From positions 1,110,001 through 1,142,000 of the forward strand of contig OY759724.1 of NCBI GenBank assembly GCA_963662715.1: DNA of 32,000 bases. The letters are read 5' to 3'. Positions 1 through 32,000 of this stretch are shown here, piece after piece. Numbering within the stretch: position 1 is the first letter of the stretch; the number at the start of each line of letters is the position of its first letter. This stretch comes from Candidatus Omnitrophota bacterium (GTDB lineage Bacteria > Omnitrophota > Gorgyraeia > Zapsychrales > JANLHA01). The notes beneath the pieces were generated by a model that saw nothing but the letters and a program-made list of their open reading frames with translations, did no database searches and was not told the origin of the DNA. The translations under genes were made by a program, and so were the position numbers.

Positions 1-3000
1 CAAAACATACGCCGCGCACCTTAGCGGAAAATTCTTTTCTGAAAGATTTCCCTTCCTCTTCCATAGTCCTGTTAAAGGCACCGGCGACCGCCGCAAATGT
101 ACTCATGTTAGACTCCAGAGGAATGCTCCAGCTGCCGATTTCAAGCCGCCCAAACCTTCTAAATTTTTGATTGCTTTGTTTTGCGCCTCCCTTTACTCTG
201 GGTTCCCCCACCGGCGAACTGGTATTATCTGTTTTACTTAACCTTGCCGCTTCGGGTTGGATAATGCCTAAGGCCACCAGTTTTTCATAAAGGGCCTTTT
301 CCTGAATGCCCAAAGCTTCGGCAAGCTGCCCTCTCGACAGAACTTGATGGTTCGCCTCAATGAACCGCAATTCCTCCTTCTTCCTCTGAATCTCAGCCGT
401 GGTTTTTCCAAGATCAACAGCCAGTTGGGCTTCATCCTCTTCCCTTCGCCTTGAGAGTTCTGCCTCTTCCTGATTCTGCCATTTATGCAGTTCGATATCC
501 TCGTTAATCAATCTTCTCATATATCTGCGGTCGGCTTTATGTTGTCCGCTGTCCTCCCATCCGTATGCGGCATAGATGCCCTCAAGACCTTTCTCAAAAT
601 AAATATCAGCGATCACTCGAAAGCCCTCCAGCATATTCTCGATGATCGCCACCGGCTTCTTAAAATGAACAGCCAGAGCCTTTGCATCCTGGGCTCCATT
701 GGCCACAAACAGACGCCACAACAGTTTTCTTTCTTCCCGGCTCCACCGGGTATATTCAAACCAGGTCAGCCTCATCTTGATTGCACTCGTGTTCCATTCG
801 AGATCACCGGCCAAAGTGGCATTATTCAATTCCGCATAATGGTTTCTGATATAAGCTAATTTTTCGAGCTGCTGCTTGGTTGTTTCAACATCCTTCCTGA
901 TCTGAGCAGCTAACTTTTCTGTCTGCTCGGGCGCGGGCATCTCGCCATACGGCAGACTCTCTTTAATCCACTGAATCAATATTTTCTCCTTGGCAGGGTC
1001 CCATTTTCGCCTTCCCTGAGGACCGGCTTTCCTGACCTGCGGGGCAGGGGCGGCAGCACTATGAGGGAGTTCTCCTTCCTGGACTCCGGCGGTATCTTCT
1101 GGTTCTGATGGCGATAAAGCTTCTGCTTTCGACGGGATATCCGGACAAATTTCTGTAGGAACAATATTATTGAGGACAAGACCGGTGATGTCCAGATAAT
1201 CTTCCCCGTAAAATTCATTGATAGAAGACATCCGGGAAAAGAGAACATATCCGTGCCAATTCACGGACACGACCTGCTGCCGGGACTGATTGAAAATATA
1301 AAACGTCCCTTTCGAGCCGTACCGGTAAAAATATTTATTTGCGGCCTGTTGCCCTTCGGCCTCTCTTTCGTTGATGGTTTCTTTGATCTTCTTTTCGTGT
1401 GCACGTGGATCACGCTGCCTATCAATCTTAAAGTCCCTTTCTCCCCGCAAAACGGCCACGATATCCCGGCTTAACCCCGCGTTAATCTTTCCGGCCCCGA
1501 TCTTATCCGCCGCGCCAAGAACATGAGCGGCAAAACCTTCCTCCGAAAATTCCAGAATACGCATCACGTCACCCAGAGGCCCAACGACAACAACTAAAAA
1601 TCTTTGGCCCTTTTCCAAATAAAAATGTTTATAAAACCGCGTCGCACCGCTTCTGTCCTGATAACGGCTCCCCCGGAAAACTTTCCCTTCCCTTAAAACA
1701 TGGGCAATATTGGAAATCACTTCTTCTTCATTAACAATCCTTCTTGCCTGAATATCTGCCCCGAAATACGTATCCCCGGTTCTGGCATGATTATTCACAA
1801 GCATTTCGCCAACCCGCTGCCATCCAAAAGGCCGTTTCCCGCGGTAAGAGGGGTACCCCTGGAATAAGACACAGACGTCAGGGACAACAACTTCCCTTCC
1901 TCTGTGTCGGAAGATCAGCTCCAAGCCTTGCCTTTCCACAACCGCAAGCGGCAGGAACCATCCGCTCTGAATCTCCCGGGTTAAACCGACCGCCTTTATC
2001 TCGGCTGCAAATTTCTCATAAGCCGCCGCATCACTCGCTTCATGCCTTTCCGTCCCCTTTACCGGTGAACTGGTCGGCTCGACCGGGCTTGATGCCGTTT
2101 TATCATCATAAGGGATCCGCAGTCTTTCCTGAAAAGCAAGCTGGTTCATTGTTCCGCTCCGGACCTGCGAGAGAAAATACTCCAGTTTATATTTACTCAC
2201 ATGCAGAGCTGTTCTGCCGCGGCTTTGCGACAGGAAGGACAGATACAGACGCGCGGCCACGCCCTGAATGATACCAAACTCGTATTCCATAAAATCTTCC
2301 ATAAACGCCTTTGTCAGACCTTTAAACCGGCCCGTCGCTCTTCCGTGCCGTATATATTTCTTCGCCTTAAGCCGATTAAAGACGCTGTGTGCCTCCTCTC
2401 CCAGCAGACTCAAGAAGCTGTCGGCGGAAATCGCCCGCTCATATTTCTTGTGTATGGAGGCAAAACGTCCTTTATGCTCTATAAGAACCTGCATAATGAC
2501 TGTCTTGGCGAACATAGCCGTCAAAATTTTCATAACATCAAAATTCTTAATAACAGGTTCACCCGGTTCTTCTTTACCGAATTTCTCATAATACATCCGG
2601 CCTATTTCTAATTTAACAGCCTCTGCCAGGTGCGATAGATAAATAAACCGGGCGCCTCCCCTCCACGGGACAAGAATGACCGGGATTTTCTGCGATGCAA
2701 ACCTTTGGTAAAGCCGCTTCAATAAAGGCTGATCCGATACAATTTCCATGAGGGAATGTCCGGCAAACGGAGCTTCCCGCATGACGGACATGGCTTCGTC
2801 CAACCGGTTCACCTCCGGATAAGCAGCAAAGATATCCTGCGCTTCTTGTATCTTTTTAATTACGACATGATAGCGTCCCAGGAATTCTTTCATCCTGGCG
2901 AAATCCGAATTGAGCCTTCCCCAGCGGGAGACAATATCCATCAAATCAGCCGTCAGCTGTCTGGCCCACAAGAGATCTTCGTACCACTGAGTCTGCCGCC

Positions 3001-6000
3001 GCTCTAAAACACGTTTTCTAAACCGCTCGATAGCCCCCGGTTTTCTTCGGGCCCGGTCATTTTTGCCGTTGAACAGTTTATTCACGGTTATCTCCTTAAA
3101 GCCATGGCTCTCCGCAACGGCTTTATAAGGCTTCCCTTCCAAAAGCCTTTGTCTGACGAAAGACATGAAGACATCCCTATCCACAGCCGCAGTGATAAAT
3201 TCATGGCCAATCTTCTCCGCGACTGTCATCACCTCCGTCTCCAGTCCCGCCAGCTGCCCGGCGAGCTGCTTCAAGATCCAGTGCGGCTGTTGTTCCACGA
3301 TGTGTCTCATTAAATGCCGGGCTACAGATACTTCCTGCATATCCGTGGCCATGGCCGTCAGGACAAACTGTTCGGGAATAATCCGCAGATGCTTCCTTAA
3401 AGTCGTCCATTTCATTCCCATTTTCTCCGCCAACTGTCTCCGCGTCAGCTTTCTATCATCCTCCAAAGCCTCGACAAGGCGGAGAAAATACCGTTTCTGA
3501 ACATCCCGGCCCTGCCAGTTGTCTCCGACAGCCTGCATAAGTTCAAGAAGGTCGGAGTCCCAGTGATCAATAATAAACGCAAACAGTGTTTCTCTGCGTA
3601 AATCATAAAACCTGTCAATCAAGGCGTCCCGCAACTCTGAAGGAGAGACTTCAAATATTCTCTGATAAAGGCCTTTCATGGCAAAAGCCTTGTCAATCCG
3701 TCCGAGCAAGGCCCGGGTGACCATACTCACGCTGACGCCCTCCTCCCTATGGGCAATAACTTCATCCAGCTCGGCGACCGACACGACAGCCCGCGTGACA
3801 GCTTCATTCAGGATGTTATATTCGAAATCACTGATAATCTTTTCCGTCCTCGCTTTATTTAATTTCAGAATTATTTTCTGCGGGGGATAAGAACGGATGA
3901 CCTCTCTGAGCCAAACACGTTCCGGAGTTAAACGTTCAATTTTCCGAGCCTTGATTTTGACCGTCTGGGCTCCTTCATCCTCTACGGGAGAACTCTGCCT
4001 ATCCGGAGCTTTGGGAGCCCCGCTTGTCTGCATCTCTGATAAGACCCGGGTCATAATGACCTGCCCTATGACCTGACGGAACGGAGTTGGCCGGTACGGC
4101 GCGGCTTCCTGCAGGAGCTGTGCCATATCGCCCTGCCACGGCCGGATCATGTTTGAAAAGGTCAATTCGTCCTTCATCATTTGTTGAGGTTTCATAAGAT
4201 GGTTCTTAGCGTACTCTGACATATAATCCGCCGCCCAATGAGCGTCATTAAAATCACGCTCAAAATCTTCAACCGCATCGGTGTCAATGACGAGATATCC
4301 TCCTGAAACCAAAGGTTCGGTCAGGACCTGGACTGTTTTTTCGCGATCATCATCTTCATCGACTTGAATTTTATCCTCGGCTTTCAGTTTAAAATACCGG
4401 ACCGGCAATATTCTCAAAATAAGCAGGCCGTCACTCTGAATCTTGATATAATTCCCTCTCACGTGCTGATAGGTAAAAAGGTTTCTCAGTTCCGGCATCT
4501 CCTCGCCGTCCTGATTGCGTATCACAGGCTGACCGTCATCCGCAAACTTGACCTTGTATAGAACGTCATTCTCATGGTCCAGCATCGTCAAATCCATTCC
4601 GGAATCCTGGGTGACAAGCATCTCCTCCTGGGTAAGTGAATAAATCACCGGCGTCATACTGTACGGCGCATCCCGGAAAGCCTCCTGAATATTCTTCGGA
4701 ATAAAGGTTGTGACATAATCAATCCTGTCCGCCAGCGTCTTTTCAGCCGCTGAAGACCGGACCGTTTGTTTAATGACCAACGTCATCCGGTCCAACATCT
4801 CTCTCGCCGCCGGACGGCCATGAAAACTTCCGATAGCTTTAACATTACACCCGTCAAATCTGAAGACAGCCAGCTTGCCTTCCCGGGCGTCCCACAAAAG
4901 AACCGTAAACTCATCAGACTGCCGCCCCATCCTGAAAGTAATATCAAAATTCTGGCTCAGAGGATGCTCCCCGCTCAGTCTTTCTGCCGGGGAAAGGGAT
5001 CTGCGGTCGTACGCTAAAAGCATAATATAGTTTATGATTCTCCGCAGGTTGGAATAGCCGGTAAAGACATTGTCCCGTCCTCTGATCATCTCGCTGCGGT
5101 AAATGATTCTCCGCTCGATGATGGTGCGCAAAGTCAGTTCAATACGCGAAGGATCTTCTGCCTCCAATGCCTCTTGATATCTTTCAATAAGATCAAAGAT
5201 CGACTCCTGATATAAAGAACAATAATCGGAAACAGCATCAAAATCATTCAGTTCATAAGCCAAACCGTTCCGGGCAATTCTTTTTATTTCTTTCGCATAA
5301 TACGGGGAATACGTTCTTATTTCGCTCCTCCGTACGGAATTGATGCTTTTCTGCAGCTTTTTGATAATCTGCGCCCGCTTAACAAAGGCGGTTTCGCTGT
5401 CCTGCTCCTCTTCCAAAGAGTCTAATTGAGCGGCGGCGTTTTCAAAATAACTGGCATATCTGAAATGAACAACATTCGCCGTCTGAACAGCCTGCTCATG
5501 CAAACGGTCTGCCATCATGAGAGCTTCCTCTTGCGTTGTCAGGTCCCCTCTGAATACGGTTGACAGGCCTCCGTACATATTGAAGTCTTCCGGAGTGAAA
5601 TTATCCAACAACTCCCTTATCCCCGAACGCTTCTTCACCCCTTCAATCACCTGCGTCCGGAATCCCGGCTTATCATCGATGATATCCTGAATCCATGACT
5701 CCGCATTGTACGACATGTCGGCTTCTTCCTCTTTGTAACGGAAAATAATATAAAACGTCGGGCCCTCGTTAAATACGCTGAAATTCAACCCATCCGTGAT
5801 CAGTCCTTCATCCCTGGCCTTTTTGATCATTCTTATCAAAGAGCCTCTCAATGCCGAGCGGATAACCTTGGCCAAAGCGATTGCGCCTAATTTATGGCCA
5901 ATACCCAGATTTTCTCCTCTTGTATTAAATTGCCGCTTAAAGTCATGCCCTTTTAAGACAGCAAGCTGTACACCCCCATGATGCCCTTTCAGGAACTGAA

Positions 6001-24000: not shown

Positions 24001-27000
24001 TATCCCAATTCTTCCATTCCGGGGAAGCCTCAAAATGTTCCTTTAACTCCAGCCGACTCGGGGCCTGGCCTGAATATTGCGGGTAGTACCCCGGCCTTTC
24101 TTGGACCGCGTTCAGAGGAATCACCACCGGAGCTATAGAAGCATAAACTTGACGCCGCACTCTGGCAAACTGATCAGCGGTCAGATCTAAAATAAAGGAA
24201 AGACCGGCAACCTCGACAATCCAGAATTCATGAAAATCAGAATGCAGTAAAGCGCTCACAACAGATTTAAAGGCATGGACCTTGGGGATTCTTTCTAACC
24301 TAATCTTCACCGTCCGGTCTTTCAAAAGATTCAATTTCCGGACTTGTTTATTCGTGTCGTCGCAATACTGCGCTATCTTTGTCTTTCGTATTCTTGCACG
24401 ATAATAATCTTCAATGACCGGCTGATTCCAATCCTGAATCAAAGCAAAGAAGGCCTTGATGTCTTCCCGCTGTTTCGAATCAAGTCTTGTTTGACCGAAC
24501 GCTAACTCAACGGCACGGCGGAACGCATCCCGGCCCAGAACCCGGCAATACTGTTGCGGGATGAACGGCTGGTATCCGTATTGATCCTTCAAAGCGGCGG
24601 CGATGATTCTGAGGTTAATCAGGTCCTGCTCCCGCTCATAGATATTCAGCAGCTGTTCCATCCTTATAGGGTTGTTGCCTTTCGCCGCCACAAGCCGTTT
24701 GATGACTCTTCTTCTTTTCTCAACGCCTTCCGGCAACCGATCTTCCCGTACAGGCGAAGAGGTCGGCTTGTCCCCGTCATCCGCCTGACTCCGGCCTTCA
24801 GCCTGATCTCTTCGGATTTTTTCCAGTTCCAGGGTATATAACTCTGCCATCTCTTTCGCAAAATATTCCGTTATCTCCGCCGGGAGCTTCAAGCGGACAA
24901 TAAAGGCGATACTTTGATCAAGATATTTTTCCGCTGATTCAACGCTGCGTTTATATCTCGGGGTCTGATTGTTGTGCAGTCTGTCGGCAAATTTGATTAA
25001 TTTCACATCCAGAGGCGCTTCATTGACCAGGCGATCCAGATATTCTTCATCCGTTTCTCTCGGGCTCTTTGTCAACATCTCCACTTTTTCCAAGACCTTC
25101 GCTCCGAGATAATAGGCGATTAACGATCGCAACTTCTCTCTTTTATATTCGCTTTCCGCATCTTCAATGGCATCATGCAACATAGCGACAGCAACCATCT
25201 CTCGCCAGTCCAGGTTATGAGAAGCCAGCAACGGATGATACGTTCTTAACAGATCAAACAATATTTTCACGACCGTGAGAGGATGCACCAGATAAGGCTC
25301 CCCATTGGCACGGACTTGTTTCCTGTGGGCAAAGAGCGCGATATACAAGATCATTTCATATTTAATAGCTTTTGTCCCGGGATAAAGCGAGTTCAGCTCT
25401 TCCTTGGCGTCTTTCCACAATGATCGGGCCTGTTTCGTCAAAGATTTATAGTCATAGTACCGGAAAATCTTTTCATACATAAAGACAACTGTTTCCACGG
25501 ATGTATCATCAACAACAAACATATTCGTCCTGCGGGTGCCCTGTAATTCCAAAAGGCCTGACTGAGCAAACCATTTTCTAGCCGTTGTGATCAGACGCCC
25601 ACCGACATAAAGATGTTTGATCAAATTCCCGGCCACAATGCTCGTCACAAACTGGGTCTGGGTCTCATAATCTTTCTCTAAAATATATTCTTTAAAAATA
25701 TACGTGATCAAATGAAATTGGCCGAATGTTTCCATATCATCCATATCCGTGAGAGATTCGATATATATGGGGTTAATAATCTCTCGATATTCCTCTTTCA
25801 GCTGATATGTCTGGCCTTTGACTCTTTCAAAATATCTGTCTCTTAGGCCTTGATTCATCTCGTTCAGATCCCCGAACCATTCCTGAGAGTATTGGCCTTC
25901 TAAAGCCTGCCGAAGCGCCTGCTGATCCGAGTCAACCGCTGTAATTTCCAAGGCTTCAAGAGGGATGCTGGAATGTTCCAAAATTTCAATAAGCATCTTG
26001 TGGGCAATCAGTTTAGGCCCGTCTCCGAACAAAGACACGCCCTCCGCGGCAAGAATCCTTATTTTCTGTTCGCCTCCCTTTTCTTGCAATTGACTGTAAA
26101 CACTTTCCAGATAGGGGATGGACTCTCTGATCTGTTCCGCGAAGCCCTCTTGCTCCCAGAAGTACAGTTTTCTCCCCGGCTTCCAGATATCTTTAAGTTT
26201 CCGGACAATAGTCTGTTCCGGAATTCTCATATACTGCAGAATCGCCCGGATTTTATCTGTCCAATAGGAATCTCCGGAAGTGTTGTCATCCGGGTTTTCA
26301 ACCGGAGAAGAACCGTAACGGCCCTGATGTATCTGCGTTTTAATCCTGTTTTCGATCTGATCGGCGGTATCAACACTTCTGAAACGCTGAACATCAGCAG
26401 GAGAAATCATCCCGTAACCCAACAGTGTTGTCTTAAAGATTTCTTCCCAATTGCTCCAGAACTCCCGTCTGACGGGTATCACAGAAAGCCCGGAAACTTT
26501 TCTGGTCTGAACCAGAGTCAAAGCTTCCATAACGGTATCTATGGTGTCTATGGCATCAGGAAAACTGAGGATGAAATCGCTATAACTTATAATAAACGTC
26601 TTCCTGATGAACTGGTGGGTCAGGCCAAGATCCTGGTTAGTACCGTCCAGAGAATCGTCCGTGTTCCCGTTAATGGGAATAAACTGCGCCAAAAAGTGTC
26701 TTCCCCGGTAATCATCTTTCGCCTGCAGATAGCCTTCTCTGGCCGCCGCCCCAACGCCTTTGGTCTCGGGCACAATAAGAGAAATCCCTTGGGAAGCTAA
26801 ACGGCGGGATATTTCCCTGGCCGTATCCATATCATCCGAATTGATCACCCGGGTTGATCCCAGGACCGAAACAATCGGTCCGGGCGTCAACCTCAGCTTT
26901 CTCATAACCCGGTACATTTCCCGGCGGATAAGATTAATGTCAATTTCAAAAACATCCCGGCTCTTATTCTTTTCTAAATGACTACTGATCGTACTCAAAA

Positions 27001-30000
27001 TACGGTTGGCGTTGCCATCCAAACTCACCATGTCCCAAGGACTGTTTAATAAATATCCGTTGATATAATCGCGGGCCAATTGCTCTATCACCTGTTCCCA
27101 GAACGGCAGGGCAATAAGCGGTGTCGCTAAATCAATGGCGCCCTGTTCCTTCAAGGCGAGCATCGTGTAAAGTTCATTTAAAGTTCCGACTCCGCCGTAC
27201 TCAAATACGCCTGCTTTGGCAAGTTTCACAAAAGAGACCAGCCGGCTGAAGAAGTACTTGAAAGCCAGTTCTCTGTTAACGTACGGGTTTGAAGCCTTCT
27301 CACGAGGCAGCTTTATTCTCAGCCCTACCGAATCAGCGCCCGCTTCACACGCGCCTTTATTGGCTGACTCCATCACGCCCGGGCCGCCTCCGGTAATAAC
27401 CGGGTATCCCAACAAAGCCAGCTCTCTGGCCAATTGTTCAGCGAAAACAGATGACTTTCTGGCTGAGCCATAAAAAGCCACGCCAGGCTTAACCTTTTTC
27501 ACTTTCTTGTGTAGTTTGATCTCTCTGACACCTCCGCTGATAAAACCGAATGAGAAATCTTTTCTGCCGTTCCAGACTTTATCCTGTACCGGTGAACTGG
27601 CGACATCATCCGCAGATTTCTTCCTTAAAACAACATGCAGGACACCGTCAAAATTCATCCCTTCCTCTTCCGTCAATTCCCTGTAATCATCCGCTTCCCA
27701 TTCCATAATACCCTTCCGCTCGCTGATCCGTTTCTCTCCGCGAATCGAAACAATTTCAAAATTATTTCCTTTGGCCGTATTTATGAGTTGTCTCTGACTT
27801 TTAATGCCTTTTTCGCTAAAGGCTGTCTGTCGTCCCTGTGTGATATCATTCTGGACAAGGACCACGGCTCCCGGCAGAAGCCCCTCAGATAGCTTTCGGA
27901 AAACCAGATCCGCATCCACATAATTCAAGACATGAGAAATAATCACCGTATCACATAAACCATAAATATGGGAAAGCGGCCCGCGATGACCTCGGGATCC
28001 AAAGAACTGCTTCACTCGCAGGATTCCGCTCTTTTTCGTTCTTTCCGGATAATGAGCGTCTCCCCGCAAAAAGAGGACGTTCCCCTGCCGGAAGAATCCG
28101 TTTCCGACGCCCCTATCAAAGGAAACGATTCTCTTGTCCGGGAACATCTTGGCCGACAGCGGATTATTTTTCCCGCCTATTTCGAGAATACGTGTCCCTA
28201 AAACGCCTTTTTCTTCGAGTTCCTGAAGAAGATTTTCAAAAGCAAAATTATACCCGAATCCTTTATTATTCCAATTATCGACAAAGATCAATTGAACAGT
28301 TTCTTCAGCGAGCGGGGCCCTTGTCCGTGTCCGTTGGTCGTGCATAACCGGGCGCAAACGAATCACAAGGTTCTCTGCCCCGTAACGCAGTTCCATATAA
28401 GGCTGCCCGCCCTCGCAAAGCCGGACTTCAATGCGTTCTTTATCCTGACGGAACAAAAATGCTTTATAGAACACCGCGGACTTCCCTTCCGTTCCTGCGG
28501 ATCTCATCGTTGTCACCCGATAGTTCGGGTCGATGTTTTGCGGAATATGTTTATGGAAAAATTGAATGATGGATATCATTTCTGCCGGGATATATCCCTG
28601 GACCATTAAAGTTCCGACCGGGCCTTCCGCCTGGGCCGTTCCCATAAGCATCTTTCCGGTCTCGAGACGGGCATAAACATGATAAAAGACCTTCCGGGGA
28701 ACTTTAGGATTGATATAAAGTCTTAACACAAACTTTAATCCTGTCTCCGCATCAAATGTCTGGACAATCCACCTTTCTCCTTTAAAGCGCTGCCCGGTTA
28801 AATACAGTTCACCCAGGACCGGGATACGGCCCTTCGTGTGCCGTACGCCCCGGAAGAGGCCCATTCCTTTCAGGTAAAAAACAAGGCGTACAGACTGCGG
28901 GGTGAATTTAGCCATCGCGGCCTGAACGCGCCGTGTTTGCAACAAATCAAGAACGATCTTTTCATCTGCCCGGCCGTAAAGACGCTTAAATAAATCGCCC
29001 AGCCCGCTCTGGTTAAACTCTTTGACAAATTCGGATAAAGTTAAGGCATATCCCTGATAAATTTTTAAATACCGAATCAGCAAGCCTTTTTGGCTCTTTC
29101 CATATACCGGGTTCTCCGCCTGCATTTCCGACGACCATTCCTGTCTTCCGGGGTTCGTAAGCGGTGAACTGGTGATGGGGAAGTCAGGGACATCAACCGG
29201 TGAGAGATGCCCGCCGGCCTTCAGCAAGATTTTTCTAACCAGAGAGAAATCCATGAAAGACTCCAACTGCGATTCGGCCAATTCCTCCGGATCCAGCAGG
29301 AGAACTCCGCCCAAGGCCACGTATTCGGAAGGCTTGGAATAAGCGTGCTCCAGGCACATTTTCCAAAGCAGGCCAGGCACCATATAAATATCATTTGAAA
29401 TAATTTGTCTGAACTGCTGTCCCGGCCAGAATCCGTCCACAACCTGTGAGGCCATCTTCAGGGTTGCAGGGACATGATCCACCGTTAATTTATCGCAGAT
29501 ATTAACCCAGACATCTGAGCCGTCGACACCTGGAATCTTCTTCTCCCAATTCCAGTCCCGGGAATCCCTGATCATGCTGAGAGGCAAATGCTCTGCGCGG
29601 ATTCTTTGGCCTGCATCGGATATATATCTAAAGCTGGCCTGTTCAATAAATTCTCTCCACGCCGTTAAAGGAACTTTCCGGTAAATAAAGACATGCAGAA
29701 ATTCCTCTACAATACCCGAAATATCGACGCTGCCACCGGAAACTTCTATCCCTACAATGGAAGCATCGGAGTTCCAGAAAGACCGTCCGAGGACAAAAGC
29801 CAGCTTAACATCTGTCAAATGAGCTGAAATACTCTTGGGGAACCGATCCAAAACTTCCGCGACGGCAGCTAAAACACTCAAATCCACATCGTCAAGATTA
29901 AGGGGCATGACGCCATAAGAGGATATCTTTCTCAAATACCGGCTTCTTAACCTTATCGATTCCGTGACTGGAGAGCTGGAAAACGCCCGGCTCTTTGTCG

Positions 30001-32000
30001 CCTCAGCTATAAAAATATCCGACGTCCGGCTGTGTTTTATAAGTCTTCTGAGCTCTCCCTGGACAAAATGTTTATTCGTGCGGGCATTCGCGGCGCGGAG
30101 AACCCGAGATAAAATATACGCGAATTGTTCTTCATTGAGATGTTGCATAACGTCCCGGTCAGCCATCGCGGCTAAAAATCCCTGCAGCTGCCGCCAGTCC
30201 GGTGTGGCCAAAACGCATTCGGAAAGGATTCGGACGTTTTCTGCGGGGTTATCAAAAGTGAACCAGCTGGCCATAGCATCGGCCACGCTAAGAGGATCAT
30301 GTCTCTGGACCTTCTGCAGGACGGAAACAGCAGCCTGATTCTCCAGGATATGGTCGATGAAGGAAGCAACGCGATGATCGAGCCGGTAATTGATACGGGC
30401 TAAATACGCTTTCAGGGAAGGAATGACAGAAGGAATGGTCGCAGGGCGATAAACAAAATGGTACGGCCTGCTGGAATCCAGATACGCGGTGATCCAGTCA
30501 AAGACAGAAAACACTTCGGACAACATATTGTTATTGGAAGGCCGGTGATGGTTTAAGATAATATGCTTCTCGGAATCGCTCAAAGAAATGGCTTCGGCCT
30601 GTATCCTATCCACGGACCCGCTGGTGTGCACAAGGGTGATATGGGCCCGCTGCTCATCGAACAATTCTCCCGGATAATTGACCATAGGAAGTATGGAGCT
30701 CTGCCCTTTGCCGAGATCGTGCATCAGCCCCATTCTCCAGAGCATATAAATGTCCTCTTCCGGCAGATCAAATTGGCGGCCGAAAATAACACCCAATTCT
30801 GATACGGCCTCTCCATGCCGCCAAACGTTTAACATGCCGGACCGGTACAAAGATCTTAATAAAGACTTTTCTTTCGACCACAGGGACACATCGATCGGGG
30901 AGCTGTTAACCTGCTGTGTTTTAGCCCGGACCGGCTTCTTGTGACGGAAAAGAATAACGCCTCCTTCGATGTAATCATATATAGTTTTGACGTCCTGATG
31001 CGTTGCCCTTTCAACTTGTTGCCCGAGAAGCCGTAACTTTCCTGCATCAAATTCCTGTTCATGAGAGGAAACCGATCCCTCATGGTCTTCCTCAAACGGG
31101 ATGGAAACAACTAGCGTCCCGCTGACAACTTTTAACCAATCCAGGATATATTCCAACGGAGTTTTATTCATTAAATGTTCCAGGACATGATTGACAACCA
31201 TAAAATCAATAAGCTCCCCTCCCAGGGTTGTTCTCACGTGTTGGACAAAACCCGGATCATTGACATCAGCAACAACCCACTGCGCATCCAACTGAGGATA
31301 CGAAACAGCTTGCTCAACAGCAAATTTCATATCCGTCAGCTTATGATCTAACCCGACAAATTTGACTCTTCTAGAAAGCTCTCCGGGCAGGAGATTAAAA
31401 GCCGTAAAGATAAAATGGCCAAAGCCCGTGCCCAGGTCTGCCACGCGAAGCGTTCTATCCGGATTTGCCGTTAAATCTTTTTGTAAGGCCATGATGGCAA
31501 CAGCGTAAATCCAGCTAAAATGCTGGATGTGACTATAATCCGGCCCGTTCAATTGATATTGCCGATAACGATATTTCTTCCTTCCTGTTATCAACGCCTG
31601 TGTTTGCTCTTCAAAAGCTTTTTGTGAATTTCTGAAGAATTCCGCCAAAACATCATCCATCGCCGCTTCCCGGCCTAATTTAGTCCGGTTCAGCCAGGAA
31701 ACAAGCTTGAGGATTAAACCTGAGCGACTTATATCTTGTCTTCTTGCCCGTCGGCTTTGGGGCACTCGCAGAAACCCTTTTCCGAACAAATCCTGCGCTT
31801 CAATACGTTGCTGCCAGACACTGTCCCGGTCAATAAGCCTTGCTGCCTGATTTTGGCTATTCACAAAATAATGGACAGCACGCCGCACCTGCCCATGGGT
31901 TAATGTCACCACTTGTTCCGCCTTTAGCAGTTCCATTTCATGGCCGGTATAGCGTGTCTCTATATTTTGTTGTTTTAATATCTCATCGAATTTTTCCGGA
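1..32000 (-). CDS. Internal fragment (>=10,666 codons) of a single giant multidomain ORF, partial at both ends; in-frame codons span 2..31999
   Basis: No ORF-track entry lies in the minus frame with first codon base = 1 mod 3, consistent with no stop in that frame. Hand translation at both edges (31999: PEKFDEILKQQ...; nt 2: ...FSAKVRGVCF) and at more than 30 anchor motifs across the window is all in this frame and protein-like. The other five frames hold only short ORFs. Confidence 0.9.
209..220 (-). other. SSP[VILM] inter-module motif (TSSPV)
   Basis: minus codons agt tcg ccg gtg, in frame. Confidence 0.85.
2060..2071 (-). other. SSP[VILM] inter-module motif (TSSPV)
   Basis: minus codons agt tca ccg gta, in frame. 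Confidence 0.85.
2081..2092 (-). other. SSP[VILM] inter-module motif (ASSPV)
   Basis: minus codons tca agc ccg gtc, in frame; first of a tandem pair ASSPV-EPT-SSPV. Confidence 0.85.
3385..3455 (-). other. Helix-turn-helix-like segment
   Basis: DRKLTRRQLAEKMGMKWTTLRKHLRII has a classic HTH residue pattern. Similar segments: EGKPYKAVAESHGFKEITVNKLF (about 3075..3145) and LSRGQLAEALGIQEKALYEKL (about 270..345). Confidence 0.3.
3983..3994 (-). other. SSP[VILM] inter-module motif (QSSPV)
   Basis: minus codons agt tct ccc gta, in frame. Confidence 0.85.
6098..6109 (-). other. SSP[VILM] inter-module motif (QSSPI)
   Basis: minus codons agc agc ccg att, in frame. Confidence 0.85.
6350..6560 (-). 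other. Candidate Cys-His-Asp (transglutaminase/papain-like) catalytic core
   Basis: GFPAGLCPLSAYILVRVL (Cys codon 6536..6538), 43 aa later GHTLGLIYSHDDPVYFLDGT (His 6407..6409, Asp 16 aa later). Spacing and local context resemble GxCxxxA...H...D transglutaminase-like cores. Weak, based on motifs only. Confidence 0.3.
6659..6670 (-). other. SSP[VILM] inter-module motif (ASSPL)
   Basis: minus codons tct tct ccg ctg, in frame. Confidence 0.8.
6749..6781 (-). repeat. Mini-repeat RLGTGDSRKGE (copy 3)
   Basis: Plus strand ctcaccctttcgggaatcccctgtcccaagacg; lies in a 78-aa module between two SSPx motifs. Confidence 0.75.
6905..6916 (-). other. SSP[VILM] inter-module motif (ASSPV)
   Basis: minus codons tcc agc ccg gtt, in frame. 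Confidence 0.85.
7240..7685 (-). other. Domain: protein-kinase-like fold, RIO/Kdo(WaaP)-like atypical kinase
   Basis: YRILDKLSVGGNARVYKA + EFVAIKLEK (Gly-loop and VAIK Lys, about 7600..7680); VVMEFVEGKDL hinge; catalytic loop GMSHTDVHLHNVMV; VKLIDYD (DFG equivalent, about 7245..7320). No APE or long C-lobe is seen. Confidence 0.6.
8165..8179 (-). other. SSP[VILM] inter-module motif (VSSSPV)
   Basis: minus codons tcg agc tct ccg gta, in frame. Confidence 0.85.
8320..8650 (-). other. Domain: GHKL/HATPase_c-like ATPase (RsbW/SpoIIAB or histidine-kinase catalytic type)
   Basis: N-box-like AGVQNIEQHGGRYG (about 8540..8580); G1-box AVILDRGRGF (about 8465..8495); G2-box SPGFGGMFGIGLPVI (about 8360..8400). 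Confidence 0.55.
8870..8881 (-). other. SSP[VILM] inter-module motif (GSSPV)
   Basis: minus codons agt tct ccc gta, in frame. Confidence 0.85.
9790..10050 (-). other. Possible cytidine/nucleotide deaminase-like zinc-binding motif pair
   Basis: GRHAHAEINLI (H-A-E = 10025..10033) and INLTTCQHCAEVL (C-Q-H-C = 9800..9811). This resembles H[AC]E...PCxxC of the CDA fold, but the spacing is about 71 aa (canonical about 25-35) and Thr replaces Pro. Confidence 0.3.
10745..10756 (-). other. SSP[VILM] inter-module motif (QSSPI)
   Basis: minus codons tcc agc ccg att, in frame; only 11 aa after the previous motif. Confidence 0.85.
10790..10801 (-). other. SSP[VILM] inter-module motif (QSSPV)
   Basis: minus codons tct tcg ccg gtt, in frame. 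Confidence 0.85.
10802..11956 (-). repeat. Paralogous module B (385 aa) of the tandem duplication
   Basis: LSEIETVF..RKFSQPIEFGVYLIA..FSHILVP; KNQQADHSLGFAHVHNSFTKAEKE; LTLLSPQD..SVL; MGQRWFDIA..LKDFRK; ends in QSSPV. Divergence is protein-level (roughly 30% identity by eye), so this is an ancient duplication rather than a DNA repeat. Confidence 0.8.
11957..11968 (-). other. SSP[VILM] inter-module motif (ASSPI)
   Basis: minus codons tct tcg ccc atc, in frame; sits exactly at the junction of paralogous modules A and B. Confidence 0.85.
11969..13195 (-). repeat. Paralogous module A (409 aa) of an internal tandem duplication; unrecognised domain family
   Basis: Shares ordered blocks with module B: LNEIEEVF..KGFAKPIQFGAYIIA..FTHFIMP; ANQQANQELGYVHLHYSYTKAERK; LTLLTPKD..SVL; IGQRWFDVN..MKDFRE; ends in ASSPI. 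Confidence 0.8.
13196..13207 (-). other. SSP[VILM] inter-module motif (VSSPV)
   Basis: minus codons tcc agc ccg gtc, in frame. Confidence 0.85.
13290..13740 (-). other. Domain: class I SAM-dependent methyltransferase (copy 3, Methyltransf_11/25-like)
   Basis: GRRILSVGSGRGELE (VGSGRG = 13655..13672); VKAIDVVPEMV; FDLVIFPYSVEHI; ARRVLKNGGKLLIIG (about 13395..13440). Confidence 0.8.
13874..13885 (-). other. SSP[VILM] inter-module motif (ISSPI)
   Basis: minus codons tca agc ccg atc, in frame. Confidence 0.85.
13973..14008 (-). repeat. Mini-repeat MNLGTGELMKGE (copy 2)
   Basis: Plus strand ctcacccttcatcaattcccctgtcccaaggttcat; 54 codons downstream of copy 1 in the same 121-aa module. Confidence 0.8.
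14135..14170 (-). repeat. Mini-repeat MNLGTGDSEKGE (LGTG[DE]xxKGE copy 1)
   Basis: Plus strand ctcacccttttcagaatcccccgtcccaaggttcat. About 80% identical in DNA to copy 2 and in frame with the giant ORF. Confidence 0.8.
14249..14260 (-). other. SSP[VILM] inter-module motif (VSSPM)
   Basis: minus codons agt tct ccg atg, in frame. Confidence 0.75.
14999..15010 (-). other. SSP[VILM] inter-module motif (VSSPV)
   Basis: minus codons tct tct ccg gtc, in frame. Confidence 0.85.
16109..16120 (-). other. SSP[VILM] inter-module motif (QSSPV)
   Basis: minus codons tca tcg cct gtc, in frame. Confidence 0.85.
16140..16400 (-). other. Tetratricopeptide (TPR) repeats, about 2-3 units
   Basis: ALNQIGHIFAGQSLWPDAEKVFARVMNIDSRNTEALNGLAETAWRQGHAEDAMKTYQHVLSIDPANREAQEGLNRL shows the typical 34-aa TPR periodicity (A/G/Y/P pattern). 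Confidence 0.6.
16740..17985 (-). other. Domain: GT-B fold glycosyltransferase, family-4-like
   Basis: N-terminal KLRIAFVAFSFPPVMGGVNIV (about 17925..17985). C-terminal EX7E-type block LLFPSWMETFGIPLIEAASVRTGVIASDL (about 16905..16990). Confidence 0.7.
18230..19520 (-). other. Domain: GH63-like (alpha/alpha)6-barrel glycoside hydrolase (mannosylglycerate hydrolase / glucosidase-I-like)
   Basis: GFYEAFWIWDAAFAALAL (about 19265..19320); NPDGGL; GLCEWKDALESGWDNSPRWD (about 18962..19020); FYWRGPVWLNLAYFMVD (about 18440..18495); YEYYNSQTGRRGEG...DFSWSAA (about 18250..18345). About 450 aa upstream (19520..20866) could be the N-terminal beta-sandwich. Confidence 0.7.
20867..20884 (-). other. SSP[VILM] inter-module motif (QSSSSPV)
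   Basis: minus codons tct tcc agc agt cca gtt, in frame. Confidence 0.85.
21100..21540 (-). other. Domain: HD superfamily phosphohydrolase (copy 3, HD-GYP/HDOD-like context)
   Basis: LHILEHATAVVLLGTYIAHELGL ... LRLAGLAHDLGKLE (H-D = 21392..21397) ... MLSHGQSALKLL ... IELHRGG. Confidence 0.6.
23954..23968 (-). other. SSP[VILM] inter-module motif (GSSSPI)
   Basis: minus codons tct tct tct ccg att, in frame. Confidence 0.85.
24749..24760 (-). other. SSP[VILM] inter-module motif (TSSPV)
   Basis: minus codons tct tcg cct gta, in frame. Confidence 0.85.
24900..25370 (-). other. Domain: RelA/SpoT-type HD domain ((p)ppGpp hydrolase-like)
   Basis: FAHRKQVRANGEPYLVHPLTVVKIL; VAVAMLHDAIEDAE (H-D = 25172..25177); VKLIKFADRLHNNQT (about 24975..25010). 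These match the three signature blocks of SpoT/Mesh1 hydrolase domains. Confidence 0.75.
25450..26150 (-). other. Possible degenerate CheR-like/Rossmann methyltransferase-like region
   Basis: IRILAAEGVSLFGDGPKLIAHKMLIE ... ITAVDSDQQALRQALEGQYS ... FHLITYIFKEYI ... LYVGGRLIT resembles the CheR layout, but the canonical residues are absent. Confidence 0.25.
26300..26311 (-). other. SSP[VILM] inter-module motif (GSSPV)
   Basis: minus codons tct tct ccg gtt, in frame. Confidence 0.85.
26420..27495 (-). other. Domain pair: LOG/TIGR00730 (PpnN-like nucleotide 5'-monophosphate nucleosidase) Rossmann fold, followed by a degenerate second copy
   Basis: GVAFYGSARK; PVITGGGPGVMESANKGA (GGGPGVM = 27371..27391); FEYGGVGTLNELY (27182..27202), i.e. 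the GGGxGxM and PGGxGTxxE LOG signatures. A second half (IVSVLGSTRV ... LIVPETKGVGAAAREG ... SFPDAIDTIDTVMEAL) repeats the layout with degenerate motifs. Confidence 0.65.
27587..27598 (-). other. SSP[VILM] inter-module motif (ASSPV)
   Basis: minus codons agt tca ccg gta, in frame. Confidence 0.85.
27740..28210 (-). other. Domain: SAM-methyltransferase-like Rossmann fold (copy 2)
   Basis: GTRILEIGGKNNPLS (ILEIGGK = 28169..28189), VSFDRG, CDTVIISHVLNYV and LLPGAVVLVQ in canonical MTase order. Confidence 0.5.
29159..29170 (-). other. SSP[VILM] inter-module motif (TSSPL)
   Basis: minus codons agt tca ccg ctt, in frame. Confidence 0.8.
29966..29980 (-). other. SSP[VILM] inter-module motif (SSSPV)
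   Basis: minus codons tcc agc tct cca gtc, in frame. Confidence 0.85.
30400..30860 (-). other. Domain: HD superfamily metal-dependent phosphohydrolase (copy 1)
   Basis: VWRHGEAVSELG ... WRMGLMHDLGKGQ (H-D codons 30716..30721) ... ILNHHRP. This is the typical H...HD...H pattern of HD domains. Confidence 0.65.
30893..30904 (-). other. SSP[VILM] inter-module motif (NSSPI)
   Basis: minus codons agc tcc ccg atc, in frame. Confidence 0.85.
30990..31600 (-). other. Domain: class I SAM-dependent methyltransferase fold (copy 1)
   Basis: Motif I RVADLGTGFGHF (VADLGTGFG = 31418..31444), then KFVGLDHK, WVVADVND, FMVVNHVLEHL and GTLVVSIPFEED (about 31085..31140). Order and spacing fit a Rossmann-type MTase. 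Confidence 0.7.

Follow-up and report, generated by a model that had tools for sequence, protein, structure and literature searches.

The DNA stretch analyzed here (32 kb; hereafter the window) is occupied from end to end by an internal part of a single giant reading frame, the product of which is divided into mostly gene-sized modules by a recurring tetrapeptide, S-S-P-[V/I/L/M]. Taken as a whole, the explanation that this is a giant Omnitrophota gene, composed of cassettes that are joined by the tetrapeptide and likely processed proteolytically, is moderately probable.

The frame on the minus strand did not contain one stop in 10,666 codons and exits the window at both ends (aa 1 corresponds to positions 31999-31997, aa 10666 to positions 4-2), whereas the other five frames contained between 286 and 621 stops each, i.e., approximately one per 20-37 codons. 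Only three low-complexity shadow ORFs were present antisense to it, and the window contained neither a tRNA or Rfam match nor DNA tandem repeats of note. When five modules were compared with their orthologs on the contig L001, differences by codon position ranked 3 > 1 > 2. By this measure, the window carries a single ORF under purifying selection, and its orthologous modules, at 47-60% identity, are ordinary in that respect.

The tripeptide SSP was found 26 times in the window protein, compared with 1.6 times expected and a maximum of 6 in 200 shuffles. In 25 of these 26 instances, it was followed by V, I, L, or (once) M and was situated in a hydrophilic linker at a module boundary; the sole non-delimiter, SSPR at aa 6886, lies inside module M14. 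The linker context was more hydrophilic than that of each of 2,000 random site sets. SSPL was counted as a delimiter because an SSPL of L001 aligns with the SSPM of the window. Since both families of serine codons occur in the delimiter, selection acts on the peptide. SSPx was kept at seven of the seven junctions common to the window and its orthologs while the flanking residues diverged; four residues are fixed, and the prime side showed no conservation. The enrichment extends to relatives, with 18 SSP in L001 (1.1 expected) and a 10-20-fold excess in P0013, P0014, P0018, P0024, P0027, and P0030. Position 4 was V, I, or L in 90% of 105 pooled sites. The median interval between delimiters was 264 aa when eight fragments were pooled, which is gene- or domain-sized, and 401 aa in the window (split at 23 SSP[V/I/M] sites). 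In six divergent proteins, SSPx was located no more than 12 residues from both ends of the LOG module. SSP was absent from several long proteins with this module (P0017, P0019, P0023, and P0025), so the tag is not required for module fusion as such. The delimiter divides the window protein as follows (window positions; aa numbering of the window protein):

2..31999, minus strand: internal 10,666-codon stretch of one giant ORF, 0 stops; start and stop beyond the window
30905..31999, minus strand: M01 (aa 1-365), N-terminally cut, probable SAM methyltransferase; Methyltransf_12 2.2e-4 (below the Pfam cut-off); motif I DLGTGFG at aa 188; ortholog at L001 aa 1936-2284 (49% identity)
29978..30904, minus strand: M02 (aa 366-674, starts SSPI), HD phosphohydrolase module; Pfam HD 3.9e-5; HDLGK at aa 427; 34% identical module at P0030 aa 3161-3457
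29171..29977, minus strand: M03a (aa 675-943, starts SSPV), no Pfam or NCBIfam match
27599..29170, minus strand: M03b (aa 944-1467, starts SSPL), class-I MTase-like motifs in the C-terminal part only; no profile match
26312..27598, minus strand: M04 (aa 1468-1896, starts SSPV), tandem LOG/SLOG; Lysine_decarbox 2.2e-21 (two stretches), LDcluster4 7e-16; GGGPGVME and YGGVGTLNE in the first copy, second copy degenerate
24761..26311, minus strand: M05 (aa 1897-2413, starts SSPV), CheR-like SAM-binding domain plus RelA/SpoT-type HD; CheR 9.5e-7, HD_4 1.7e-6
23966..24760, minus strand: M06 (aa 2414-2678, starts SSPV), no significant Pfam/NCBIfam match
20879..23965, minus strand: M07 (aa 2679-3707, starts SSPI), ~800 unannotated aa, then HD; Pfam HD 2.2e-6 at module residues 823-941; 59-64% identity to counterparts in L001, P0001, and P0002
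16121..20878, minus strand: M08 (aa 3708-5293, starts SSPV), GH63/MGH1-like glycosidase, GT4-type glycosyltransferase, and TPR; Pfam MGH1-like_GH 2.6e-48, Glyco_hydro_63 4.3e-18, Glycos_transf_1 2e-7, TPR_19 3e-6; glycosyltransferase E-x7-E at aa 5011; orthologs 59-64% identical
15011..16120, minus strand: M09 (aa 5294-5663, starts SSPV), no Pfam/NCBIfam match
14261..15010, minus strand: M10 (aa 5664-5913, starts SSPV), no Pfam match even at E<=10; conserved CxxC at aa 5750-5753; ortholog at L001 aa 5962-6209 (46% identity)
13886..14260, minus strand: M11 (aa 5914-6038, starts SSPM), short spacer module with LGTGDSEKGE and a degenerate second copy; L001 counterpart a 63-aa spacer with LGTGDSGKGEG
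13208..13885, minus strand: M12 (aa 6039-6264, starts SSPI), class-I SAM methyltransferase; Methyltransf_11 1e-18
11969..13207, minus strand: M13 (aa 6265-6677, starts SSPV), orphan, paralog of M14 (32% identity, E 5e-59); no relatives among 5.8 billion proteins or GTDB genomes
10802..11968, minus strand: M14 (aa 6678-7066, starts SSPI), orphan, paralog of M13
10757..10801, minus strand: M15 (aa 7067-7081, SSPV), 15-aa "empty" interval, then SSPI; flanking delimiters differ in codons
8882..10756, minus strand: M16 (aa 7082-7706, starts SSPI), zinc site resembling that of cytidine deaminases, with HAHAE (aa 7321) and CQHC (aa 7397)
8177..8881, minus strand: M17 (aa 7707-7941, starts SSPV), GHKL-like motifs only (NIEQHGG, DRGRGF, GFGGMFGIG); no Pfam match even at E<=10, none in NCBIfam or PDB; AF2 pLDDT 37
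6917..8176, minus strand: M18 (aa 7942-8361, starts SSPV), ~160-aa N-domain and truncated protein-kinase-like domain; Pkinase 5.7e-16, profile covered at positions 1-143 of 263; VAIK, HTDxxxxN, and DYD; ortholog in P0003 (55% identity) with SSPV on either side
6671..6916, minus strand: M19a (aa 8362-8443, starts SSPV), 82-aa spacer with LGTGDSRKGEG
6110..6670, minus strand: M19b (aa 8444-8630, starts SSPL), candidate Cys-His-Asp module (Cys 8488, His 8531), putatively papain-like; no Pfam (E<=10), NCBIfam, or PDB match; AF2 pLDDT 32
3995..6109, minus strand: M20 (aa 8631-9335, starts SSPI), no significant match
2093..3994, minus strand: M21 (aa 9336-9969, starts SSPV), weak HTH-like segments; HTH_24 2e-3 (below the Pfam cut-off)
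2072..2092, minus strand: M22 (aa 9970-9976, SSPV), 7-aa "empty" interval, then SSPV
221..2071, minus strand: M23 (aa 9977-10593, starts SSPV), no match
2..220, minus strand: M24 (aa 10594-10666, starts SSPV), first part of one more module that continues past the window

Profile searches confirmed several domain calls that an earlier, sequence-only reading of this DNA had made, namely those of a SAM methyltransferase (M12), of HD domains (M02 and the C-terminal part of M07), of tandem LOG domains (M04), of a CheR-like domain (given there with a question mark) with a SpoT-type HD (M05), and of GH63-like, GT4, and TPR domains (M08). Its label "RIO/Kdo-like kinase" is fair for M18 because the Kdo, RIO, and ABC1 profiles also match, and the two modules that it had regarded as novel paralogs, M13 and M14, are indeed related to each other. 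A deaminase-like motif had been assigned to M16; direct matches to deaminases were weak (Pfam 0.016; PDB 2a8n 0.56), but transitive homology supports the assignment. M16 matched modules of P0014 and P0027 by BLAST (8.5e-8 and 3e-6) that themselves match dCMP_cyt_deam_1 (2.8e-17 and 3.3e-12, respectively), with the zinc-site histidine and both cysteines aligning. The MTase-like label of M03b is a motif-level one. Catalytic motifs are intact in many modules. Significant Pfam stretches cover only ~14% of the residues, and 11-13 modules have no match in Pfam, NCBIfam, or PDB; "cytoplasmic enzyme content" is, therefore, a description of the annotatable minority.

No Ig, cadherin, RTX, NRPS, or PKS family, and no C/A/T or KS/AT/ACP domain, was detected at E<=0.05 anywhere in the window protein, as the same reading had claimed, and profile search of the window yielded no dockerin/TSP3 arrays, C80 CPD, or adhesin repeats. 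It had also seen no obvious transmembrane stretch, which holds for the window: the 19-residue Kyte-Doolittle mean reached at most 1.75, at a GT-B N-terminal strand, and no credible transmembrane helix was found over the 10,666 aa. Because the ORF runs past both window ends, the full protein may still have transmembrane helices or SecA_DEAD. Within the protein, repetition was seen only between M13 and M14 and between the HD domains of modules M02 and M07.

Close relatives were found only as partial ORFs filling whole contigs of Omnitrophota MAGs. P0001-P0003 are 52-64% identical to the window protein. The contig L001 (41 kb), in which all 6,647 codons examined are open, carries the submitter label "uncultured Planctomycetales." The distant relatives P0013, P0018, P0024, and P0030 are likewise named Omnitrophota. 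Because all named relatives are Omnitrophota MAG proteins, an Omnitrophota origin of the window is strongly indicated, albeit indirectly. Modules are collinear in independent MAGs (47-64% identity), and changes concern whole cassettes: M05 and M06 are missing from P0001 and L001, exactly between delimiters (a counterpart of M05 resides in P0030, aa 4146-4572), and M09 is missing from L001 with the same precision, M08 there adjoining the M10 ortholog. The downstream neighbor of M18 in P0003 differs from that in the window, as does the module order in the distant giant P0030. The LOG module M04 had 4,584 library matches, with full-length ones in many Omnitrophota giants. Free-standing homologs also occur, P0036 and P0038 (419-426 aa) corresponding to one tandem-LOG module from end to end. 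The impression of ordinary genes concatenated into one frame is thus well supported by free-standing homologs, gain and loss of whole modules, their reordering, and gene-sized intervals. Among the relatives' fragments, P0013 contained a NUDIX domain, and hydrophobic segments were discernible by eye in P0014, P0025, and P0030.

The novelty that the sequence-only reading had implied was not borne out, as the architecture has already been described in two papers on giant Omnitrophota proteins; the window gene is a further example of this Archaeovorin or multi-enzyme class, and the delimiter is absent from both papers. Archaeovorins (West-Roberts et al, 2023, bioRxiv 10.1101/2023.11.21.568195), with a 39,678-aa protein of Velamenicoccus archaeovorus LiM as the type sequence, were proposed to degrade cell walls extracellularly; no junction motif was given, and the cleavage points were called unknown. 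Class traits are numerous transmembrane helices, a divergent SecA_DEAD, and an N-terminal C39 or S8 peptidase near a signal peptide. The window shares with them a giant single Omnitrophota ORF, GT, GH, SAM methyltransferase, TPR, and Lysine_decarbox domains, much unannotated sequence, HATPase-type content (in the window at motif level only, M17), and, in its relative P0013, NUDIX. It differs in having no transmembrane helix, SecA_DEAD, HEAT, NUDIX, or peptidase (which may lie beyond the 32 kb), and in that its annotatable enzymes require SAM, ATP, or nucleotides, in contrast to the extracellular role proposed. The 30,000-aa threshold of that paper is beyond the reach of a 32-kb window; the 10,666 open codons exceed the 10,000 aa used for giants in the 2026 survey (bioRxiv 10.64898/2026.06.07.730766). 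The "multi-enzyme metabolic cluster" class defined there among Omnitrophota proteins of at least 10,000 aa, with Pfam co-occurrence modules 1 and 2, resembles the window protein in that many distinct Pfam families tile the chain, none being dominant, without tandem repetition of nucleotides. Its module 1 (PF08241 MTase, HATPase, and HD regulators) resembles M12 and M02/M05/M07, and its module 2 (GT group 1 and sugar enzymes) M08. The survey operates with Pfam families and is silent on linkers, motifs, and cleavage, and 94% of the proteins of at least 10,000 aa had transmembrane helices and/or a signal peptide, whereas the 10,666 aa studied here have none. Both papers leave cleavage of the chain undecided, and missing information on cleavage points blocked module-wise structure prediction in one survey paper.

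In the processed-polyprotein explanation, the window is an internal, transmembrane-free part, no fewer than 10,666 residues long, of a giant gene that extends far beyond it. The encoded chain consists of ~24 gene-sized cassettes, about half of them orphans and many retaining intact catalytic motifs for chemistry that requires cofactors of the cytoplasm (SAM, ATP, nucleotides, or sugar nucleotides). Short hydrophilic linkers, each with an invariant S-S-P-[V/I/L], join these cassettes, which are gained, lost, and reordered as units at the junctions. The whole chain would be translated as one polypeptide, and one dedicated factor would read the common tetrapeptide, most likely an endopeptidase cutting after the aliphatic residue (Pro in P2, aliphatic P1). 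Cleavage would yield individual enzymes, one per module, at a fixed 1:1 ratio, and the gene would amount to an operon written as a polyprotein. The cofactor needs, together with the lack of transmembrane helices in the window, suggest a cytoplasmic location; for some giants, published predictions of topology put comparable content on the outer side of the membrane. In form, SSPx is like the recognition motif of a protease, and subtilisin- and elastase-type proteases have A-A-P-V/L/F substrates similar to SSP[V/I/L]. A processing site is probably the most likely role of the delimiter, although a conserved linker tetrapeptide could equally serve phosphorylation, glycosylation, or docking. Tentatively, a cellular polyprotein system is proposed that uses S-S-P-[V/I/L] as its processing code: Omnitrophota would make tens of unrelated enzymes as a single chain, cut for instance by an S8-type peptidase of the same giant, and the gene would be a stop-codon-free operon with cassettes shuffled at the tag. 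Viral polyproteins (e.g., of picornavirus, flavivirus, and coronavirus pp1ab) likewise combine many unrelated enzymes in one ORF, with a short recurring sequence in exposed linkers and products in 1:1 amounts; the window differs by belonging to a cellular genome, by its far greater number of modules, by the exchange of cassettes between relatives, and by its putative cleavage, no protease having been found in it.

Processed polyprotein, scaffold, and delivered effector array are indistinguishable by sequence alone. Rather unlikely, in our judgment, is an uncleaved "beads-on-a-string" scaffold, in which the intact chain would be anchored by transmembrane segments beyond the window and would hold enzymes at the envelope or cytoplasmic face, with S-S-P-[V/I/L] acting as structural linker cap or as modification or docking site of the kinds named above instead of a cut site. 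Profile search detected no protease domain in the 10,666 aa and only an M23 peptidase (not to be confused with module M23) in the relatives' fragments, which fits an uncut chain, as do the helices and signal peptides of most giants and the membrane-anchored readings favored in the literature. Peptides of the V. archaeovorus giant were reported from cells, and a surface "coat" was proposed; re-analysis of that proteome for separate products had an inconclusive published outcome. Ser-Ser-Pro is also a plausible site of Ser-directed modification, with a kinase (M18) and a glycosyltransferase (M08) embedded in the chain. A purely structural linker, however, needs no invariant tetrapeptide amid drifting flanks, and the "empty" stretches (7-15 aa) that lie between paired delimiters have no scaffold role. 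Moreover, the modules have unrelated functions and can change places, which disfavors an ordered assembly line.

Export of the chain or of freed modules into prey or host cells or onto their surface, as with MARTX or polymorphic toxins, is improbable, and it would be compatible with either the polyprotein or the scaffold explanation rather than a competitor of them. LOG, HD, SpoT-type HD, deaminase, kinase, and MTases would then target metabolites of the prey. Omnitrophota are ultra-small and thought to be predatory or parasitic, and peptides of the V. archaeovorus giant were ~3-fold more abundant in attached cells. Rapid cassette turnover is typical of effector repertoires. Cysteine is depleted in the window protein (0.27%), a typical trait of bacterial proteins that are exported. 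The domain types overlap with conflict systems (PADLOC matches to PD-T4-6 kinases, PsyrA (SLOG), and Cas3 HD), but these domain-level matches reflect generic domain homology only. Against export, the window has neither a secretion signal nor an RTX repeat, an autoprocessing CPD, or a domain known from toxin delivery, and its orthologous modules are under ordinary purifying selection. MARTX toxins are very long bacterial proteins as well, with interchangeable, unrelated enzymatic effector domains and a repertoire that differs between strains; these are released by cleavage in interdomain linkers, which is only proposed for the window protein, and the cut is made after Leu without an SSPx-type tag. 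The window protein lacks RTX repeats and the C80 cysteine protease domain and is several times larger. Internal starts of transcription or translation, producing the modules separately as in an operon without stop codons, are very improbable: SSP is followed by V, I, L, or M, whose codons can resemble starts, but the fourth codon is mostly GTA, GTC, GTT, ATC, or ATT, GTG and ATG occurring just once each. In-frame start codons with a Shine-Dalgarno-like sequence upstream showed no enrichment, being present near 4 of 25 junctions compared with 6.4 ± 2.2 at random positions, Met was not enriched after junctions, and every upstream ribosome would read through. The chance of an artefact, be it an assembly chimera or a pseudogenized stretch open by chance, is next to negligible. 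The window does end inside the ORF, and its relatives are contig-limited fragments, but the stop-free frame, the collinear modules in independent MAGs with their codon-position pattern, and the intact catalytic motifs speak against it.

Giant genes make up a large share of the small Omnitrophota genomes. The delimiter provides a concrete, testable rule for where to split these sequences, and the chain may be cut at this tag, which would supply the cleavage points called missing in earlier studies. It predicts which peptide termini to expect in existing V. archaeovorus proteomes and names a linker peptide relevant to co-encoded peptidases. If the tag is a processing code, this would be the first rule for splitting giants in silico and in proteomics, and cleavage, if true, would make them the cellular equivalent of viral polyproteins, at a scale without precedent. 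Without cleavage, the tag would still define the cassette as the unit of evolution in these genes.

The minus-strand frame runs through 10,666 codons with 0 stops (the remaining five frames contain 286–621 stops each), and because it is open past both ends of the window, the protein must be longer than 10,666 aa. Compared with L001, a contig carrying an orthologous giant ORF, substitutions by codon position follow the order 3 > 1 > 2 in annotated and dark modules alike, which indicates purifying selection on both. Neither tRNA genes nor Rfam families were found in the window, nor any DNA tandem repeats of note. Three arginine/proline-rich antisense ORFs on the plus strand read as shadow ORFs, and the longest of them is treated as a shadow of the giant gene (modules between tags are numbered M01 to M24, N to C):

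25973–26800, plus strand: antisense ORF of 275 aa, ATG start, low-complexity translation, overlapping M04/M05

The ORF, tRNA, and Rfam results together rule out additional genes or RNAs on either strand. The protein is strongly depleted in cysteine (29 in 10,666 aa, 0.27%); L001 has 0.33%. CxxC motifs account for two of the rare cysteine pairs: that of the dark module M10 (window 14741–14752) is conserved in L001, and that of M16 (window 9800–9811) is part of a deaminase zinc site.

The tripeptide SSP occurs 26 times when 1.6 occurrences are expected (16-fold), and at most six were obtained in any of 200 shuffles. All but one of these (25 of 26) are S-S-P-[V/I/L/M], invariably in hydrophilic linkers, and their surroundings are more hydrophilic than those of all 2,000 random site sets. 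The 25 sites divide the chain into 26 intervals; splitting at the 23 SSP[V/I/M] sites instead gives complete modules with a median of 401 aa. At seven junctions common to orthologues (47–64% identity), the tetrapeptide is kept while its neighbours drift. L001 contains 18 SSP versus 1.1 expected, and SSP is enriched 10–20-fold in six distant giants; six proteins carry a tag no more than 12 residues from each end of the LOG module. Over 105 pooled sites, position 4 holds V at 58, I at 26, and L at 10; tags follow one another at a median spacing of 264 aa, and the flanks contain no further conserved position. Six long proteins with the same tandem-LOG module (P0017, P0019, P0023, P0025, P0058, and P0141) have no SSP at all; thus, the tag is lineage-specific. 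By eye, the inter-module regions of P0019 and P0023 contain recurring "SEPSL" and "SSS[A/V]", respectively, which may be alternative delimiters of other lineages.

Modules turn over as cassettes at these sites. M05 and M06 are absent from P0001 (a partial orthologous ORF) and L001, where M04 adjoins M07, and M09 is absent from L001, where M08 adjoins M10; both changes are bounded by a tag. P0003, another partial orthologue, has M18 in common, between two SSPV sites, followed by a module with no counterpart in the window. In the distant giant P0030, M04, M02, and M05 stand in another order, and free-standing proteins of 419–426 aa each match a single LOG module exactly. Some tag-to-tag intervals are nearly empty or contain remnants:

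window 10757–10801 (aa 7067–7081), minus strand: near-empty interval, 15 aa
window 2072–2092 (aa 9970–9976), minus strand: near-empty interval, 7 aa
L001 aa 284–291: remnant interval, SSPVSSPE
L001 aa 2714–2777: remnant interval, three 30-aa SSPV-bearing repeats
P0003 aa 1080–1134: remnant interval, 50-aa P-loop fragment

These very short intervals look like footprints of lost modules; in the window, the paired tags of the empty intervals differ in codons and are therefore not recent duplications. The sequence-only reading had likened the locus to ordinary genes concatenated into one frame, and the gain, loss, and reordering of gene-sized units at tags, together with the free-standing one-module proteins, bear this out.

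Its domain list stood in most parts when the modules were scanned against Pfam. The scan agreed with an HD domain in M02, tandem LOG in M04, CheR-like plus RelA/SpoT-type HD in M05, HD at the C terminus of M07, and a GH63/MGH1-like glycosidase, a GT4-type glycosyltransferase, and TPR in M08; M12 matched Methyltransf_11. The proposed RIO/Kdo-like kinase M18 was recovered as a protein kinase–like domain that aligns with no more than the N-terminal half of the Pfam profile; Kdo, RIO, and ABC1 matched secondarily. Four calls stay tentative: GHKL in M17, the Cys-His-Asp module M19b, the second methyltransferase-like M03b, and HTH in M21. M17, M19, and M03 had no match in Pfam (E ≤ 10), NCBIfam, or PDB (phmmer), single-sequence AlphaFold2 models of M19 and M17 (pLDDT 32 and 37) were too poor to use, and the sole HTH match in M21 was subthreshold (HTH_24, Pfam 2e-3). 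Significant Pfam stretches cover just ∼14% of residues, and most assigned modules have intact catalytic motifs. In M04 (window 26312–27598), the first LOG copy retains GGGxGxM and (P)GGxGTxxE; the second is degenerate (PDAIDTIDT) and probably non-catalytic. In line with the sequence-only reading, the Pfam scans detected no adhesin-type, RTX, or NRPS/PKS family. PADLOC matches went no further than generic homology at the domain level (kinase, HD, SLOG, and MTase) and showed no membership of a defence system.

The deaminase-like motif of M16, weak alone, gains support from modules of two distant tag-bearing giants, P0014 and P0027:

window 8882–10756, minus strand: M16
P0014 aa 2670–3022: deaminase module
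P0027 aa 638–892: deaminase module

BLAST of M16 against the latter two gave 8.5e-8 and 3e-6, both are clear dCMP_cyt_deam_1 domains (2.8e-17 and 3.3e-12), and the zinc-site His and both Cys align between them and M16. All three share an insertion that separates the HxE zinc motif from CxxC, ∼70 aa long in M16 and ∼60 aa in the other two. In P0014 and P0027, the deaminase lies directly upstream of tandem LOG; in the window, ∼5,000 residues separate the two.

Among the dark modules, the anticipated paralogy of M13 and M14 was confirmed (E 5e-59):

window 10802–13207, minus strand: paralogues M13 and M14, ∼400 aa each, 32% identity

Nothing was detectable for either in Pfam and NCBIfam, and M13 searched against GTDB genomes, and both against 5.8 billion proteins, returned no relative, not even a self-match. 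On these comparisons, M13 and M14 are true orphans, a tandem duplication inside the giant gene. A second linear motif, LGTGDSxKGEG, occupies short spacer modules flanked by SSPx on both sides, and the corresponding spacer of L001 (63 aa) has it conserved; it may serve as a peptide for docking or recognition:

window 14144–14176 (aa 5946), minus strand: LGTGDSxKGEG
window 13982–14014 (aa 6000), minus strand: LGTGDSxKGEG
window 6758–6790 (aa 8408), minus strand: LGTGDSxKGEG
L001 aa 6241: LGTGDSxKGEG

Close relatives of M08 and of the M17–M19 segment were found solely in Candidatus Omnitrophota MAGs. P0001 (2,317 aa), P0003 (1,201 aa), and a third orthologue, P0002 (959 aa), are partial ORFs spanning entire contigs, and L001 (a GTDB contig) is open across all 6,647 codons examined. 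A scan of JGI metagenomes with an M07–M08 alignment gave no match. Searching exhaustively with the LOG module, without a profile, yielded 4,584 relatives. Among those that match over the full length are many long partial ORFs, the longest reaching 7,135 aa, and every named one belongs to Omnitrophota. One LOG protein, P0012 (460 aa, 59% identical to M04), turns into low-complexity Arg/Ser/Pro from the exact point of its relatives' SSPI junction, which suggests a frameshift or an error of assembly in the MAG contig, not a true terminus. ORFs of more than 20 kb have been reported across Omnitrophota classes (Seymour et al, 2023). "Archaeovorin" giants, as defined by West-Roberts et al (2023), contain glycosyltransferases, methyltransferases, glycoside hydrolases, NUDIX, TPR, HATPase, and Lysine_decarbox (bioRxiv 10.1101/2023.11.21.568195), and a "multi-enzyme metabolic cluster" class from 176 complete genomes has co-occurring sets of MTase/HATPase/HD and GT1/sugar enzymes (bioRxiv 10.64898/2026.06.07.730766). 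As such giants are described there and the named relatives are all Omnitrophota, the window belongs to an already described kind of gene; its architecture is known for the phylum and not new. The tag, in contrast, appears undescribed in the survey literature on these giants: SSP, linkers, and junction motifs are unmentioned in both surveys (bioRxiv 10.1101/2023.11.21.568195; bioRxiv 10.64898/2026.06.07.730766), a literature search for SSPV/SSPI as a known cleavage site returned nothing relevant, and missing cleavage-point information kept the authors of the former from splitting giants (bioRxiv 10.1101/2023.11.21.568195).

Independent gene-sized units thus share a single frame, with a common tetrapeptide between them at which cassettes turn over. 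Composition does not account for the SSP excess, given the low expectation and the fact that ordinary short LOG proteins are essentially without SSP. Nor is the junction a DNA-level motif or recombination site: tag serines are drawn from both codon families and the four-codon strings differ between junctions, which places the constraint on the peptide. Internal translation starts were likewise rejected; the fourth tag codon is seldom a start codon, and a Shine-Dalgarno sequence plus start accompanies 4 of 25 junctions, which is no enrichment over random positions (6.4 ± 2.2).

One common factor would read the tag between modules. A putative endopeptidase is favoured because the motif has the shape of a non-prime-side protease site and because S-S-P-V resembles A-A-P-V/L/F, the classical substrates for serine proteases of the subtilisin and elastase types. 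It is also favoured because S8 and C39 peptidase domains have been reported near the N termini of these giants (bioRxiv 10.1101/2023.11.21.568195). The window itself contained no protease, and the only one found in fragments of relatives was an M23 peptidase in the distant giant P0024. The main rival to endopeptidase processing is a chain that stays intact and anchored in the membrane, with the tag serving for modification or docking. As the sequence-only reading had noted, long hydrophobic transmembrane stretches are missing: the 10,666 aa contain no credible transmembrane helix, and their most hydrophobic segment coincides with the first β-strand of the GT-B fold. We infer a cytoplasmic location of the stretch only from enzyme cofactor needs and this lack of helices, and topology predictions conflict among other giants (bioRxiv 10.1101/2023.11.21.568195; bioRxiv 10.64898/2026.06.07.730766). 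Delivery as an effector array would be compatible with processing and with an intact chain alike.

The S-S-P-[V/I/L] tag is the part worth pursuing, as it extends beyond the window and makes the question of processing directly testable. The annotatable modules are nucleotide-centred (LOG, three HD, a SpoT-type HD, and the deaminase), to which the distant giant P0013 adds NUDIX and PRPP synthetase. Such a theme would suit the scavenging or manipulation of nucleotides by a host-dependent, ultra-small bacterium.
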